A stretch of 10,643 bases of DNA from a virus (Duplodnaviria > Heunggongvirae > Uroviricota > Caudoviricetes), in IMG/VR virus record IMGVR_UViG_2657245521_000002; one strand, written 5' to 3'. How positions within the stretch are numbered: the first letter of the stretch is position 1; each line of letters opens with the position of its first letter. The notes under the pieces are model-generated. The model was given only the letters and a program-made list of their open reading frames with translations. It ran no database searches and had not been told where the DNA came from. Shown here piece after piece: positions 2,247 through 6,212 of the stretch. A program made the translations under genes and the position numbers.

Positions 2247-2599
2247 TACGCCTCCGATGTAACAGTCGTTATTCCATAAAGAGTGTCGATTTCAGCGGAA
2301 AACATGACACGTCGGGTCGTGGTATCCAGCGTCGTATTGAAAGAGAGGATTGATTTAACGCCCTGCGTTTCGAGGATGCGCTTACGGATCGCCAGGTTGT
2401 AGGTTTCCGGCTTCTGCTTACCGAGTACGGACTGGATCCACGGAGTCCCCTCGGTGGTGTCGAGAAACCATTGCCCATACCACAATTCGAATCGCGTTTT
2501 TACCGCCTGCGCCACGGCCTCCGGTGAGTTAATCAGCCAGGTGTCATCACCGCTGCCAAAGGTGTAATCGCCATCGGCGTCTTCACGTCTGTATCGCAT
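2246..2599 (-). CDS. baseplate wedge protein, gpW/gp25-like (117 aa)
   Basis: ATG at 2597-2599 overlaps the spike TGA (TGATG). A 117-aa protein between the spike and J-like genes; size matches P2 gpW (115 aa). Confidence 0.6.
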   Translation of the reverse strand: MRYRREDADGDYTFGSGDDTWLINSPEAVAQAVKTRFELWYGQWFLDTTEGTPWIQSVLGKQKPETYNLAIRKRILETQGVKSILSFNTTLDTTTRRVMFSAEIDTLYGITTVTSEA

Positions 2600-3351
2600 C
2601 AGTTTACCCCGTCGGTACTGCTTCCACCGCGCTGAACACCACCATGAGTGTGCGTATCATCGATTGGCTTGCCGTTAGCCTTCACGCTCCCCAAAAACTC
2701 AACAGCACCAGTGATTTTTGAAGCCACACCAGAAACCACAGACCCCACCATGCCCCCCATCCAGGTTAACAGGCCATGAATGGTTACTTTCTCAGAAAAA
2801 TCAGCCAGGGGGGCAACCACATCAAGCCCCCCCGGAGCGACAATTTTAATTTTCCTGGTATCAGGATTAAGCTCAAAATAGGTGCTGCCGTCGTCACTAC
2901 GCAACTGTGTGGCACTGGTATTAATACCGCTAATCTTCCTAGCCTGCGACTGGGGACCGACAATACAAAACGCATCCGATAAATCATGCATTCTGTCATC
3001 AACCGTCTCCTGTATCCCGCCGCTCTGCCACCAGAAATCAATACAACGATCGGCAAAAACGACAAGACACTCATCCCCAGCTTTTACCGGAAAAGTCAAC
3101 GTACAGCCTCCGCCGCGCGGGAATACCACTGGCACATCCACCAGCAATGGGTAATTTTTGGTAATGCGGTTACCGTCGTTATCCTTTTCAACTGACCGGA
3201 TAGCTGGCTGCACAACCGCCGTCACCGCGTCAGGATCGAATGACTGAATAATGCCAGGCAAGGCGACACGGATCTGGTTCTTTGTTGTTTCCCGTTCAGA
3301 TTTAAATGTTTCGGCAAGATCGCCACTGCGGGTCTGGTCAGTTACTGCCAT
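2599..3351 (-). CDS. baseplate central spike protein (250 aa, P2 gpV-like)
   Basis: ATG at 3349-3351 with GGAG 8 nt upstream. First gene of a V-W-J-I series. The C-terminal tip reads DDTHTHGG (H234, H236; nt 2644-2652 verified), resembling the His-x-His metal-binding apex described for P2 gpV-type spikes. Confidence 0.65.
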   Translation of the reverse strand: MAVTDQTRSGDLAETFKSERETTKNQIRVALPGIIQSFDPDAVTAVVQPAIRSVEKDNDGNRITKNYPLLVDVPVVFPRGGGCTLTFPVKAGDECLVVFADRCIDFWWQSGGIQETVDDRMHDLSDAFCIVGPQSQARKISGINTSATQLRSDDGSTYFELNPDTRKIKIVAPGGLDVVAPLADFSEKVTIHGLLTWMGGMVGSVVSGVASKITGAVEFLGSVKANGKPIDDTHTHGGVQRGGSSTDGVN

Positions 3352-3362
3352 TGGTAGGCTCC

Positions 3363-3392
3363 AAAAAGCAAAAAACCCGCCGGGTGGCAGGT
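3363..3392 (-). terminator. putative rho-independent terminator downstream of the moron cassette
   Basis: Minus-strand RNA would read AAAACCUGCC-ACCC-GGCGGGUUUUUUGCUUUUU: a 6-9 bp GC-rich stem (one G-U pair) with a 4-nt loop, followed by U6 and U5 tracts. It sits in the only sizeable intergenic gap, between the 170-aa stop (3412) and the spike ATG (3351). Confidence 0.5.
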
Positions 3393-3411
3393 TTTATCTC
3401 ATGAAGAATGA

Positions 3412-3924
3412 CTATCGGTGGATAGTATTAAAGTATTCAGAAAGCTGATTATCAGTTATCAAACACAACTGCATCAAATAAATAGAGTATTTCAATAACT
3501 TTTCATCACGAACGGGGGCGGGACGTAAATACTTCCCGCCGTGAAAGAGATTATTTCTTATATACGGGATCTGCTTTAATGCTTCAGCAAGAGAATGAGG
3601 TTCGATTGGAGGTTTATCCTCCCACGAAAAATCATGCCTCTGCTGCTTCACAGGTTGCTGACATAGATACTCAACTGCCCTATCGACATTTCTATTTCCA
3701 GTAGGATATAAAGGCCGCGTATCATCAGTAGCGTAGCGGCTCCAGTCAGCACCGATTAGATAATTTCTACGATCAGTTTTTTTGAAATTAATTCTTTTTA
3801 ACGCATATTCGAAACGCGAAAAATAATTAAAAAACCTTATAACAAGAGTAATATCAATTCCGCCGAGAAGTTCCTGAAAGTCAGGGTCTTGAAATGAATT
3901 CAAAGGATCATCATCAACTGTCAC
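3412..3924 (-). CDS. hypothetical cytoplasmic protein, 170 aa, low GC, with R-x4-H (HEPN-like) motif; moron gene
   Basis: Start (GTG at 3922-3924, or the TTG 7 codons downstream) overlaps the TGA of the 111-aa gene. Hand-counted GC is about 38% over 3421-3900. Residues 123-128 read RNNLFH (nt 3541-3558, verified codon by codon). No signal peptide or transmembrane segment. Followed by a terminator hairpin. Confidence 0.55.
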   Translation of the reverse strand: MTVDDDPLNSFQDPDFQELLGGIDITLVIRFFNYFSRFEYALKRINFKKTDRRNYLIGADWSRYATDDTRPLYPTGNRNVDRAVEYLCQQPVKQQRHDFSWEDKPPIEPHSLAEALKQIPYIRNNLFHGGKYLRPAPVRDEKLLKYSIYLMQLCLITDNQLSEYFNTIHR

Positions 3925-4256
3925 TTGCTGCTCACTTTTTTACACGGGAAAGATCCAATGATTTTCGGCGCGTCCATGCTGTTCTGCAGCAGCTGGACGT
4001 TCAGGAAAGCTTTTCCGTTACGTTTCACAAACTCAAAGCCGTAATTGTTACCATCACGGGAAGGCATCAGGCCCATGTCCATTTTCATGTTTGAATAGTC
4101 ACCATCTTTTCCCAGAAATTTTATCTTCTGTGATGTGACAGTTTCACCGTTAATAACAGTCATTCCGTCACCGGTCATCGTGTAGTTGCCGCACTGAATT
4201 GCAGCCATCGCCGGAGCAGTAACCATCATAACTAACGCCAAACATAACCGTTTCAT
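3921..4256 (-). CDS. small exported protein with Sec signal peptide (111 aa; moron gene, function unknown)
   Basis: ATG at 4254-4256 overlaps the hub-gene TAA (TAATG), with an AGAGGG Shine-Dalgarno 6 nt upstream. The N-terminus MKRLCLALVMMVTAPAMA followed by AIQCG is a textbook signal peptide with an A-x-A signal peptidase I site; there is no lipobox. The mature protein is about 93 aa with two Cys (near the N- and C-terminus) and is Gly/Asn/Lys-rich. Not a tail structural protein. Confidence 0.6.
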   Translation of the reverse strand: MKRLCLALVMMVTAPAMAAIQCGNYTMTGDGMTVINGETVTSQKIKFLGKDGDYSNMKMDMGLMPSRDGNNYGFEFVKRNGKAFLNVQLLQNSMDAPKIIGSFPCKKVSSK

Positions 4257-5320
4257 TAAAGCCCTCTTTCCCTCGCTGATGAGGAAACAAGATCCGCCGC
4301 GCCACGCGCTTCACACATCATATCCATGTACCACGCCTGGCCCCTTGTGTCGCCAGTGTACATAATCCCGCGCACAATATAAACGCCATCCGTTGCGATG
4401 CTGGCAGGCTGCGATGTGGTGCCGCTGAGCGTGATATTTCCGTCCGTGTTCTGGTCGGTGATCTGACCACCAGCCATCGCAATATCGTTGTTCGACAACG
4501 CGGTACGATAGACGGAAGCCTGATCCAGCTGAATGAGCCCGTTAACCCGGATGTTCGGATTAATAAGCGCGCGGACGTTTACGCCGTTACCGATAGTCTG
4601 CTGCGGCATTCCAATAAGCCCGGTAGCGCTGTTGAGCACAATCGCTTCGTGAACATATTCGTTATTCACCACCATCTGGCGCTGACCGTCCACGAATTGC
4701 CATGTTGCGCCACATTGTCCGGCTACGTTATCCATTAGATGCCGCGTCATGCCAAAGAGTACCCGCCCCCGGGGGAATACAGTAGCAGGCATTTCAGGCG
4801 TCAGGCCTTCGGTCGCGCCTTTGGCTTCGAAGTCTTTCATCAGCGCACGGTTCACATCAGCGACCGTGTAACCGGCAGCCAGCGTCTGTGAGGTTATACT
4901 GGTAGCAAAAGCCAGATCAGTATCTGCTGCCTGAATCAGGACGTAGGTATCAACCGGACTGTCTTTTCCTGTGACCGAGTAGCGAATTTCACCGCTGAAA
5001 ATCAGTCCGTAGTTGCGGCCATCTCTCTGGCCCACGTCCGCCGCGTCAACTTCCCGCACGGTCCCTACGTCGCTTGCTGACACCTCCGGCGCGATACCGT
5101 CGTAACCGGCAATCAGACGCACTTTCGAAAACTCCTGCCCGGTAATTCGGTTCACAGTATCTGCCGAGAGGTTATAAATTTTGATAGTCCCTACCCGGGA
5201 CGCGCTGCTGATGTTGAACCAGTCGATCGTAAAGGTGACTTTGAAATCACTTAGCTCAATTCCCTGACCGTTCCCGTCCACAAGCTGCAGCTCGAAATGT
5301 CTCATCCAGTTCTGTGACAT
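4256..5320 (-). CDS. baseplate hub / late-control-D-like protein (354 aa; P2 gpD / Mu gpP family by position and size)
   Basis: ATG at 5318-5320 with GGAG 7 nt upstream. A 354-aa protein in the D slot after the tape measure, U-like and X-like genes. The call rests on synteny and size, not on a verified motif. Confidence 0.5.
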   Translation of the reverse strand: MSQNWMRHFELQLVDGNGQGIELSDFKVTFTIDWFNISSASRVGTIKIYNLSADTVNRITGQEFSKVRLIAGYDGIAPEVSASDVGTVREVDAADVGQRDGRNYGLIFSGEIRYSVTGKDSPVDTYVLIQAADTDLAFATSITSQTLAAGYTVADVNRALMKDFEAKGATEGLTPEMPATVFPRGRVLFGMTRHLMDNVAGQCGATWQFVDGQRQMVVNNEYVHEAIVLNSATGLIGMPQQTIGNGVNVRALINPNIRVNGLIQLDQASVYRTALSNNDIAMAGGQITDQNTDGNITLSGTTSQPASIATDGVYIVRGIMYTGDTRGQAWYMDMMCEARGAADLVSSSARERGL

Positions 5321-5322
5321 GC

Positions 5323-5625
5323 TTACTCCGTTGATACCAGTAAATGGCTGCGACCGCCCAGGTCAGTTTTTGTGGGGTAATCCTGTGTGTTGTCATCACA
5401 GACCACCACCAGCTTAAAACCAAGCCCCATACAGGCGTACTGCGCCAGCAGGTCAGCACCAGTGACGAGAGGAATACCGGAGATTACCGGCTCCCCTCTG
5501 TCGTTCTGCAGGTCCATAATCCAGTACAGATCGCGCCATATGATGCTAATCCGCCAGGTGACACCACCCAGGACGATGCTGAACTGCTGGTTGTCCGCTG
5601 TCAGCGGAATTTCCTGAATTGTCAT
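5323..5625 (-). CDS. small tail/baseplate protein, 100 aa (X-like position between the U-like and D-like genes; no LysM motif seen)
   Basis: ATG at 5623-5625 overlaps the upstream TAA stop and is preceded by a G-rich Shine-Dalgarno; its stop is followed 3 nt later by the next ATG. Assigned as a tail gene only by coupling and position. Confidence 0.4.
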   Translation of the reverse strand: MTIQEIPLTADNQQFSIVLGGVTWRISIIWRDLYWIMDLQNDRGEPVISGIPLVTGADLLAQYACMGLGFKLVVVCDDNTQDYPTKTDLGGRSHLLVSTE

Positions 5626-6212
5626 TAGCCGCCCCCCAGTAATGACGCCACGTTACCCGTGATGCTTTTCAGCAGTGAAGTATCTGGAGGCTTTGTGGTT
5701 TTGTTGCCGCTGTTCTGTACCGCCGACGTGCTGGCCCCTTCCTTCATGTTGGTTTTATCCGCGACGGTAATCTGCTGTGTCCGGGAGATAATGACCTCCC
5801 TCAGGGTGAGGACGGCGGACAGGACGTTTTCGGTTGTCTTGTCCGTCGTCACTTCCAGCGCCCGGATCAACATGTTGCTGTACAGCCGTTTACCGGTTAC
5901 CACATCGAAGGGGATACGGCTTTCCTGCAGACCCAGTAGCTCCTGATACGTCTGCTGAGGACTCAGGCCGAGCAGGCTGGTAGCCGTCAGGTTACTGGCA
6001 AAATCCAGCAATGCGCCGCCACCGGCGAAACCAACCTCCATCACCACTTCTGACGGTTTTTTATAGGCATGATCAGCGACAGCGGCCCCGACCTCTACCG
6101 GATGCTCTGTTATTTCAAGCATATCTGTATGCTTCTCTGAAATAACAACACTGGGAACAATCATTCCTATTTTTCTGCTCTGCTGATGAAAAAGTGTAGA
6201 GAGAATATCCAC
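5625..6212 (-). CDS. tail/baseplate protein, 195 aa (post-tape-measure position, P2 gpU-like by synteny)
   Basis: Start (GTG in the ORF track) overlaps the tape measure stop and is preceded by a GGTGAGGGTGGG Shine-Dalgarno-like tract. Size and position match the U slot of a P2 T-U-(X)-D block. No motif was recognised. Confidence 0.45.
   Translation of the reverse strand: MDILSTLFHQQSRKIGMIVPSVVISEKHTDMLEITEHPVEVGAAVADHAYKKPSEVVMEVGFAGGGALLDFASNLTATSLLGLSPQQTYQELLGLQESRIPFDVVTGKRLYSNMLIRALEVTTDKTTENVLSAVLTLREVIISRTQQITVADKTNMKEGASTSAVQNSGNKTTKPPDTSLLKSITGNVASLLGGG

Follow-up and report, generated by a model that had tools for sequence, protein, structure and literature searches.

What is a protein with a secretion signal doing in the middle of a phage tail operon? 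This question is raised by the virus record IMGVR_UViG_2657245521_000002 (Caudoviricetes; IMG/VR), a DNA stretch of 10,643 nucleotides (nt) that we refer to as the window and whose minus strand carries all of its tail genes. Directly after the baseplate hub gene, an open reading frame (ORF) encodes a protein of 111 amino acids (aa), labelled here X111. Superinfection exclusion and lysogenic conversion are known to arise from exported proteins encoded within tail operons, as in the case of HK97 gp15, Cor, Llp, and Lom, and few of these proteins have been characterized. To our knowledge, none of them is a soluble beta-barrel of the periplasm whose gene adjoins the hub gene of a contractile tail. 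We argue here that X111 is, with high probability, an exported, non-virion accessory protein, and we tentatively propose that it would act in the periplasm as a binder of the superinfection-exclusion or immunity type. Throughout the text, compared genome loci carry labels of the type Lnnn, and homologues of X111 labels of the type Pnnnn.

Sequence hallmarks of export

The N-terminus of X111, MKRLCLALVMMVTAPAMA followed by AIQCG, has an n-region with a charge of +2, a hydrophobic core of 12 residues, and A-M-A at positions -3/-1. A rule-based script, looking for a positive n-region, an h-region of around 7-15 residues, and small neutral residues at -3/-1, divides it into M-K-R, LCLALVMMVTAP, and A-M-A, with the predicted cleavage before the following A, in agreement with a Sec-dependent signal peptide of type I, that is, one processed by signal peptidase I. 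The lipobox [LVI][ASTVI][GAS]C is absent: Cys22 stands in the context A-I-Q-C, and the glutamine at its -1 position rules this motif out.

This organization extends to the whole family. A Cys-Gly motif is present in 141 of the 146 full-length members, and all 141 have a site with small residues at -3/-1 located 10 residues or fewer before the conserved cysteine, the residue at -1 being alanine in 127 of them, serine in 11, and glycine in three. The hydrophobic core of the family has a mean peak hydropathy of 2.66, and the n-region usually contains one or two Lys or Arg residues. The signal-peptide sequence itself drifts, with a ratio of nonsynonymous to synonymous substitution rates (dN/dS) of 0.67, approximate as are those given below, while its n-h-c architecture is kept; such a barely conserved presequence would be the typical behavior of cleavable signal peptides. 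A regular-expression scan of the family for lipoboxes flags only P0137, P0156, and P0172. The first two (292 and 265 aa, with lipoboxes LSGC and LVSC, respectively) are lipoproteins in which an N-terminal domain of around 190 aa is fused to the X111 domain, and P0137 is located in the same slot between hub and spike genes of the same tail type. The free-standing homologues encoded in bacterial chromosomes also have signal peptides.

A first-pass annotation of this DNA, made from the letters alone, had described a signal peptide with an A-x-A site and no lipobox, and a mature protein of about 93 aa with one cysteine near either end. Both descriptions hold, the first one with an architecture conserved across the family, and the second one with cysteines at mature positions 4 and 87. 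X111 thus bears every sequence hallmark of Sec export and of cleavage by signal peptidase I, from which we infer its actual export. A confident match to a virion structural protein would have argued against the idea, also found in that annotation, that X111 is not a tail component; it was looked for by sequence and by structure, and no significant match to any virion protein was found. Taking both lines together, we consider it highly probable that X111 is an exported accessory protein that forms no part of the virion.

A predicted beta-barrel with a variable and a conserved half

Structure prediction renders the mature domain as a small up-and-down beta-barrel, with a predicted local distance difference test score (pLDDT) of 87.6, and the modeled fold class is that of a small, all-beta barrel. 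A Foldseek search of this model against BFVD gave no match below E 0.1, and in structure comparisons avidin-type barrels outscore PliC and PhiA. Conservation within the family falls on the columns C22, G23, N36, D53, L85, and C105, to which TSQK and DGNxYGF are added in the main clade; only C22, C105, and L85 stay invariant once the alignments extend down to 23% identity. The presence of an invariant pair of cysteines at the ends of a small domain suggests that Cys22 and Cys105 probably form a disulfide in the periplasm.

The two halves of the mature protein evolve at different rates. Across 31 genes, dN/dS is 0.29 in the variable N-half (precursor residues 19-60), 0.07 in the ultra-conserved C-half (residues 61-108), and 0.11 over the mature part of the protein, values that are approximate because dS is saturated at around 1.4. 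The C-half (MGLMP.RDGN.YGF.F.KRNGKAFLNVQLLQNSMDAPKIIGSFPC) shows 75-100% identity in most of the 33 genome loci compared, and 47-69% in the most divergent ones. Between prophages of Escherichia coli and Photorhabdus, the C-half is 86% identical and the N-half 50-60%, with values of 44-64% for the hub, the spike, the plug, and Baseplate_J; where the C-half retains 86% identity, the hub retains only around 60% and the spike around 52%.

The phrog_3443 family

X111 belongs to phrog_3443, a PHROGs family of uncharacterized function, which it matches with an E-value of 2.7e-53 (residues 3-109 against profile positions 6-114 of 115); no match was found in Pfam (E<=0.01) or NCBIfam. In a search of 5.8 billion proteins, 410 homologues were recovered at E<=1e-3, and those bearing an organism name are all from Enterobacterales and annotated as 'hypothetical' or 'secreted protein'. 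When 1.84 billion cluster representatives were searched exhaustively with a profile, only 61 of them were recovered, so the family is a narrow one. The X111 ORF is a genuine gene under selection, far beyond chance. Its family is found in prophages of Escherichia, Klebsiella, Salmonella, Enterobacter, Citrobacter, Yersinia, Serratia, Photorhabdus, and Pantoea, under the label 'hypothetical' in every database examined. Positions 3300-5400 of the window are 100% identical to the temperate E. coli myophages vB_EcoM-689R2, 606R2, 611R5, and 683R1, and the region is matched in 103 of 5,426 complete E. coli genomes (around 2%). Our literature search found no paper mentioning the phages of the window, and the paper on phage SEN34, a relative with the same gene order, does not discuss the X111 gene.

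Some members of the family are encoded outside phages. The chromosomal subfamily P0141, located between yciY and yciI/tonB, has 10 relatives, all of them 'hypothetical' and with no functional clue; one such non-phage member occupies positions 8001-8327 of L011, in the yciY-yciI/tonB interval of an enterobacterial chromosome. In L010 (GCA_000773975.1, 7318-10208), another non-phage homologue adjoins a lipoprotein gene and lies around 1.4 kb upstream of an orphan Hcp gene of a type VI secretion system (T6SS). A role in T6SS immunity was considered on the basis of this neighborhood and set aside, as no effector signature emerged from the neighboring genes.

A dispensable gene in a fixed position

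The synteny scan, with one genome per GTDB species, covered 33 loci, all labelled Enterobacterales except one Chryseobacterium record. SEN34, Mulock, YP3, and several Klebsiella prophages share the order hub, X111, variable gene or genes, and spike, which holds down to 35% identity of X111, with the variable genes sometimes on the opposite strand. The start of X111 lies between -11 and +35 nt from the hub stop in nearly all loci with flanking sequence, typically with an overlap of 1 or 4 nt; overlaps of 1, 4, 8, or 11 nt are found in 19 of those with a resolved hub stop. The start of the spike gene, in turn, lies anywhere from 10 nt to 4.1 kb beyond X111. In the window, the minus-strand sequence at the junction reads ...GCGAGGGAAAGAGGGCTTTAATGAAACGG..., with hub stop and X111 start overlapping as TAATG and the Shine-Dalgarno sequence GAGGG 5 nt upstream. 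The overlap and ribosome-binding site noted in the first-pass annotation are therefore both there, on the minus strand, which that annotation had not given. Through the TAATG overlap, X111 is predicted to be translationally coupled to the hub and co-expressed with the late tail genes, as had been anticipated.

Even with this constancy of position, X111 is dispensable for this tail type. In the Hafnia phage yong1, whose hub is 77% identical to that of the window, unrelated genes fill the slot, and only a C-terminal remnant of X111 of 17-21 aa is left. This remnant (L015, 4523-4594; MDAPKLIGSFPCKKVPG, 81% identity) follows an unrelated gene of 136 aa, as the footprint of a cassette replacement. 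X111 is absent from the Acinetobacter phage AbTJ, where the hub is directly followed by the spike, and in phage EKP1 and Burkholderia BgManors32 the slot contains unrelated signal-peptide proteins, that of BgManors32 being encoded on the opposite strand. With this absence or replacement in yong1, AbTJ, EKP1, and BgManors32, X111 emerges as an accessory gene whose position is fixed, at the 5' border of a hotspot for cargo.

The cargo itself is very diverse, since 31 unrelated clusters, or nothing at all, follow X111 before the spike. Among them are an exported Sie-like/tRNA_anti-like protein (phrog_8545), toxin-antitoxin pairs of the YafO and the Phd and Fic/Doc types, a transmembrane-anchored Mrr-like nuclease, whose domain matches the PADLOC ZorD C-terminus, PDC-S02, and mREase_IV, and many other signal-peptide or transmembrane proteins. 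The junction between hub and spike of SEN34-like myophages is, in short, a hotspot of moron and defense cargo. Cargo genes were located at L041 6399-7247, L045 6402-7243, L037 7972-8403, L033 6355-7095, and L005 4378-5046.

X111 itself fits the notion of a moron only in part. Of the definition quoted in PMC3594210, presence or absence among close relatives is what we observe, and the own promoter and terminator were not found in the window, all promoter and terminator calls in this work being consensus scans only and hence weak evidence. Its GC content is 45.2%, against 51-54% in the neighboring genes, and its GC content at third codon positions (GC3), 54.5%, lies inside the 51-64% of these neighbors. 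Because its GC3 matches that of the tail genes, unlike that of the 170-aa gene downstream (34%), X111 would not be a recent moron but a long-resident accessory gene. The earlier view of X111 as host-cell cargo rather than a tail protein can be retained in what concerns the virion, of which it is very unlikely to be a part; the word cargo, however, needs qualifying for a gene that appears long-resident, is fixed in position, and has a backbone-like GC3.

Alleles of X111 are shuffled independently of hub, spike, and tape measure. In L003, identity is 96% for the hub, 88% for the spike, and 53% for X111, and in L023 it is 80% for the hub and 87% for X111. Copies can also accumulate: six phrog_3443 paralogues stand in tandem between hub and spike in Serratia aquatilis (L043, NZ_CP173186.1, 5983-10328), one of them truncated, together with an insertion sequence transposase. 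Each of these paralogues has its own signal peptide, and among the downstream copies of full length the C-halves are nearly the same whereas the N-halves diverge. A second, distant copy of X111 is present in L026.

Two of the compared loci, the Elizabethkingia phage EKP1 (L016) and Chryseobacterium sp. 18061 (L022), are labelled as Flavobacteriia and have a tail module resembling the Enterobacterales versions; the latter shares 93% identity with the window in its hub and 86% in X111. These host or assembly labels look doubtful, by contamination or misassignment. In the Pseudomonas phage E217 (L052, 7595-8128), a protein of 177 aa without a signal peptide, gp42, is encoded between the hub gp41 and the tail tip gp43, and it is never mentioned in the cryo-electron microscopy paper on E217. 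Even though gp42 was rejected as an analogue of X111, being unrelated in sequence and lacking a signal peptide, it indicates that insertions between hub and spike exist beyond Enterobacterales, yet are heterogeneous.

A putative periplasmic binder

According to the mechanism that we favor, X111 would be exported by the Sec pathway and cleaved by signal peptidase I, giving rise to a small beta-barrel of 93 aa in the periplasm, probably stapled by Cys22-Cys105. Its gene would be a long-resident, dispensable accessory of the tail modules of SEN34-like temperate myophages of Enterobacterales, made at least with the late tail operon. The protein would bind and block a factor acting in the periplasm or entering it, for which the tail tip or the DNA-delivery apparatus of incoming phages is the most plausible candidate, with the ultra-conserved C-half serving a constant function and the variable N-half providing specificity. 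The combination of a constant and a variable half with allele shuffling, paralogue stacking, and lipoprotein tethering makes exclusion or immunity the best single guess, and the envelope-targeted and defense cargo filling the adjoining slot is counted as further support for an immunity-like role. That X111 is a periplasmic binder of this type is a tentative proposal, which we would place somewhat below an even chance, function and target included; the explanation as a whole, an exported, non-virion accessory barrel with an exclusion or immunity function, comes only slightly short of one.

Several observations weigh against this proposal. No homology ties phrog_3443 to exclusion, and PADLOC returned no family for X111 at E<=1. 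Across the loci, X111 was not seen to vary together with the hub, the spike, or the tape measure, and as the alleles do not follow their own hub, spike, or lysin type, a self-directed, co-evolving target is not evident. The conservation of the C-half across genera fits a conserved host target equally well. Moreover, the gene is wired into a late structural operon. In the window, no convincing promoter of its own was found, and the sole terminator-like hairpin near X111 comes after the 170-aa gene. A promoter-like site around 130 nt upstream of X111 is present in six of 30 related loci, against 6% of background windows, and these sites coincide with conserved codons of the hub (VYIV read as TATATT); the copy of the window has no -35 match at this position. 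An own promoter of X111 across the 30 loci was accordingly rejected, the weak enrichment being accounted for by the hub codons. Classical exclusion needs expression in the lysogen, which, with no convincing promoter and with the coupling to the late operon, has to be presumed.

A bolder version of the favored mechanism, which we regard as rather unlikely, would make of phrog_3443 an unrecognized family whose members confer immunity to contractile injection devices from within the periplasm. The C-half would then dock on a conserved element, and the N-half would recognize the spike, the hub, or the tape-measure conduit at the tail tip of particular incoming myophages or tailocins once the outer membrane has been punctured. 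Protection would be widened by allele swaps, by paralogue stacking, as in the six copies of the Serratia prophage, and by lipoprotein tethering, and the junction between hub and spike would constitute a dedicated envelope-defense island with X111 as its fixed first member.

Alternative roles

X111 might instead serve the lysogen with no role in phage defense, as a fitness or conversion factor, an alternative that we consider unlikely. It could be a periplasmic inhibitor of a peptidoglycan hydrolase (an animal lysozyme, or a lytic enzyme of the host or of a competitor) similar to PliC, MliC, or PhiA, or else a binder of a conserved component of the host envelope that aids fitness under stress or in host association. 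A mature beta-barrel of around 90-100 aa, with one pair of cysteines and with both soluble and lipoprotein forms, recalls the architecture of PliC and MliC; no tail protein matches the conservation of the C-half across genera, as would be expected for a conserved non-phage target, and stand-alone chromosomal homologues exist. However, the Pfam model of MliC (PF09864) was matched neither by X111, which has no Pfam family at E<=0.01, nor by 10 distant members, even at E<=1, and the better scores of avidin-type barrels speak against PliC or PhiA. The signature motifs that MliC and PliC insert into the active site, SxSGAxY and YxxxTKG, are likewise absent from the conserved columns of the family. 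A tight coupling to a late lytic operon would be odd for a gene benefiting the lysogen, and the tandem array with diversified N-halves suggests variable targets. This same coupling is what would be expected of a periplasmic helper of the phage's own lytic cycle, expressed only with the tail genes, which might tune lysis or envelope breakdown, protect the producing cell against lysis from without, or reduce the loss of progeny on debris. The start of X111 at or within a few nt of the hub stop in nearly all loci, the backbone-like GC3, the want of a convincing own promoter in the window, and the situation in L042, L048, and L050, where the spike starts 10-12 nt after X111 with neither terminator nor cargo in between, all embed the gene in the late operon. 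Such a helper is nonetheless distinctly unlikely, as X111 is dispensable in phages with related tail modules and is replaced by unrelated exported proteins, one of them encoded on the opposite strand and hence independently transcribed. Nor would a six-copy array or allele shuffling be expected of a housekeeping lysis protein, and homologues exist in non-phage chromosomal positions.

A more specific target would be the hydrolase domain of the phage's own tape measure, which X111 would inhibit in the periplasm to block re-infection by the same phage, as a strict analogue of Spackle. The last 200 aa or so of the tape measure (window 6212-6800) form a lysozyme-like domain with an RNNNPGN motif, which has no Pfam model and matches PDB entries 7q47 'Endolysin' (E 9.5e-14) and 9vvp_L Gp29 (E 1.3e-20). 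The closely related tape measures of L007, yong1, L019, and L021 bear a Pfam SLT domain instead, meaning that the lysin domain has been swapped within one tape-measure family. Spackle (gp61.3 of phage T4) is also small, periplasmic, and disulfide-bonded, a superinfection-exclusion protein with a mature form of 75 aa and a disulfide between Cys29 and Cys81 that acts against a tail-tip component of incoming phages, as an inhibitor of a tail-spike enzyme (PMC7677548). Both proteins are small phage products with a signal for periplasmic localization, a mature form of less than 100 aa, and cysteines near both ends. They share no sequence similarity, though, and whereas Spackle folds as an alpha-helical bundle and its gene is among the early ones in a virulent phage, X111 is predicted to be all-beta and belongs to the late tail operon of a temperate phage. 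Besides, X111 alleles do not track the type of tail lysin: those 86-98% identical to that of the window occur with both types, the Enc34-endolysin-like one in the window, L020, and L023, and the SLT one in L019, L021, and L022. Inhibition of the phage's own tail lysin is disfavored by this distribution, and the strict analogue of Spackle appears improbable. More improbable still would be that X111 is not exported at all, its hydrophobic N-terminal segment remaining uncleaved to anchor a minor protein that would cooperate with the hub at the tail tip, in ejection, or in assembly. Hydrophobic segments can occur in tail-tip and ejection proteins, and the invariant position next to the hub and the translational coupling would suit such a partner. 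Against it stand the lipobox-fused relatives found in the same slot, the invariant pair of cysteines, the almost neutral evolution of the signal-peptide sequence, the absence of the gene from phages with related tail modules, the non-phage chromosomal homologues, and the lack of structural matches to virion proteins; the solved E217 virion, in addition, assigns no protein to its gene between hub and tip, the unrelated gp42.

Known systems for comparison

Besides Spackle, the exclusion reading has a precedent in gp15 of HK97, a YebO-like envelope protein encoded by a moron of the tail operon, with homologues only in Enterobacteriaceae, some of them chromosomal and outside prophages, which blocks DNA entry in a manner dependent on the tail of the incoming phage (PMC3594210, PMC10883804). 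Both gp15 and X111 are encoded by accessory genes inside a tail operon, are directed to the envelope, and have chromosomal homologues. However, they are not homologous: gp15 is a small inner-membrane protein whose gene has its own promoter, its own terminator, and a deviant GC content, whereas X111 is a predicted soluble, exported barrel, coupled to the hub and with a backbone-like GC3. Llp of T5 and Cor of phi80 and N15 are also exported, encoded beside tail or receptor-binding genes, and protect the cell at the envelope (PMC9586334, PMC3594210). The two lipoprotein fusions among the relatives of X111 bring the family closer to them; in contrast, Llp and Cor mask an outer-membrane receptor, X111 itself has no lipobox, and there is no homology. 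With the periplasmic immunity proteins of T6SS (BtaiB, 9jdd_B), the resemblance is at the fold level only, with 16% identity, and X111 has no paired effector gene and belongs to the context of a phage baseplate operon. The X111 family is, then, an uncharacterized family within a known kind, that of the exported phage accessory proteins encoded in tail operons.

Should X111 block phage entry, this would affect the range of hosts open to phages used in therapy against Klebsiella, E. coli, and Salmonella, and a periplasmic mechanism would be added to the catalogue of defenses. Whatever its function, the junction between hub and spike of SEN34-like myophages is useful for the mining of new defense genes.

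The tail operon of the window and the 170-aa neighbor

The features of X111 and of the surrounding tail operon are collected in Table 1.

Table 1. Features of X111 and its neighborhood, in coordinates of the window.
Feature	Position	Strand	Remarks
X111, complete coding sequence, stop codon included	3921..4256	-	From the ORF list; 111 aa, ATG start; phrog_3443 member
Signal peptide, residues 1-18, MKRLCLALVMMVTAPAMA	4203..4256	-	Read from sequence; signal peptidase I cleavage predicted after A18
Mature 93-aa domain	3924..4202	-	Predicted all-beta, small up-and-down barrel
Cys22 codon (mature position 4)	4191..4193	-	Invariant in family alignments
Cys105 codon (mature position 87)	3942..3944	-	Invariant in family alignments
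Shine-Dalgarno GAGGG of X111	4262..4266	-	5 nt before ATG, within hub gene 3' end
Stop codon TAA of hub gene	4256..4258	-	Last A shared with X111 ATG (4256-4254), TAATG, 1-nt overlap
Baseplate hub	4256-5320	-	phrog_196 'baseplate hub', E 2e-88; Pfam E217_GP41 match below its cut-off
Pam3-gp18-type plug	5323-5625	-	
Dit-like protein	5625-6212	-	
Tape measure	6212-8218	-	
170-aa ORF	3412..3924	-	Context, not partner; GTG start overlaps X111 stop (GTGA, 3924-3921)
Terminator-like hairpin (10-bp stem and T-run)	3372..3395	-	Between 170-aa gene and spike gene; consensus scan, pattern match only
Spike gene with Gp138_N and Apex motifs	2599-3351	-	
Sheath-initiator-like gene, Baseplate_J, DUF2612		-	After the spike

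The gene downstream of X111 in the window differs markedly from it in composition, with a GC content of 38% and the low GC3 given above. In the 19 aligned homologues of its 170-aa product, FSRFEYALK and RNNLFHGGK are invariant, with an Rx4H signature of the type found in HEPN RNases, and three of the 19 match Pfam Abi_2 weakly (E 0.04); the protein has no PADLOC match, and nothing significant was found in a sequence search of the PDB. Judging from these motifs, it looks like an independent, low-GC, HEPN-like defense or toxin moron, a candidate single-domain HEPN gene of abortive infection or toxin type.

This gene had been suggested as a partner of X111, and a two-gene module, for example a sensor and its effector or a toxin and its antidote, could be imagined from the 4-nt overlap of both ORFs and from their common location in the low-GC stretch 3350-4250. 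The co-occurrence data led us to reject this partnership: a homologue of the 170-aa gene follows X111 in only one of the 33 loci (L022), each related phage examined has a different gene downstream, and both genes occur together in just 25 of the 103 E. coli genomes matching the region. The variety of what follows X111, 31 different cargo clusters or nothing, the difference in GC3, and the absence of an export signal from the 170-aa protein point in the same direction, so that a joint action of the two proteins seems extremely improbable.

The terminator-like hairpin of Table 1 sits in the middle of the late tail operon, which would imply read-through or antitermination during lytic growth.

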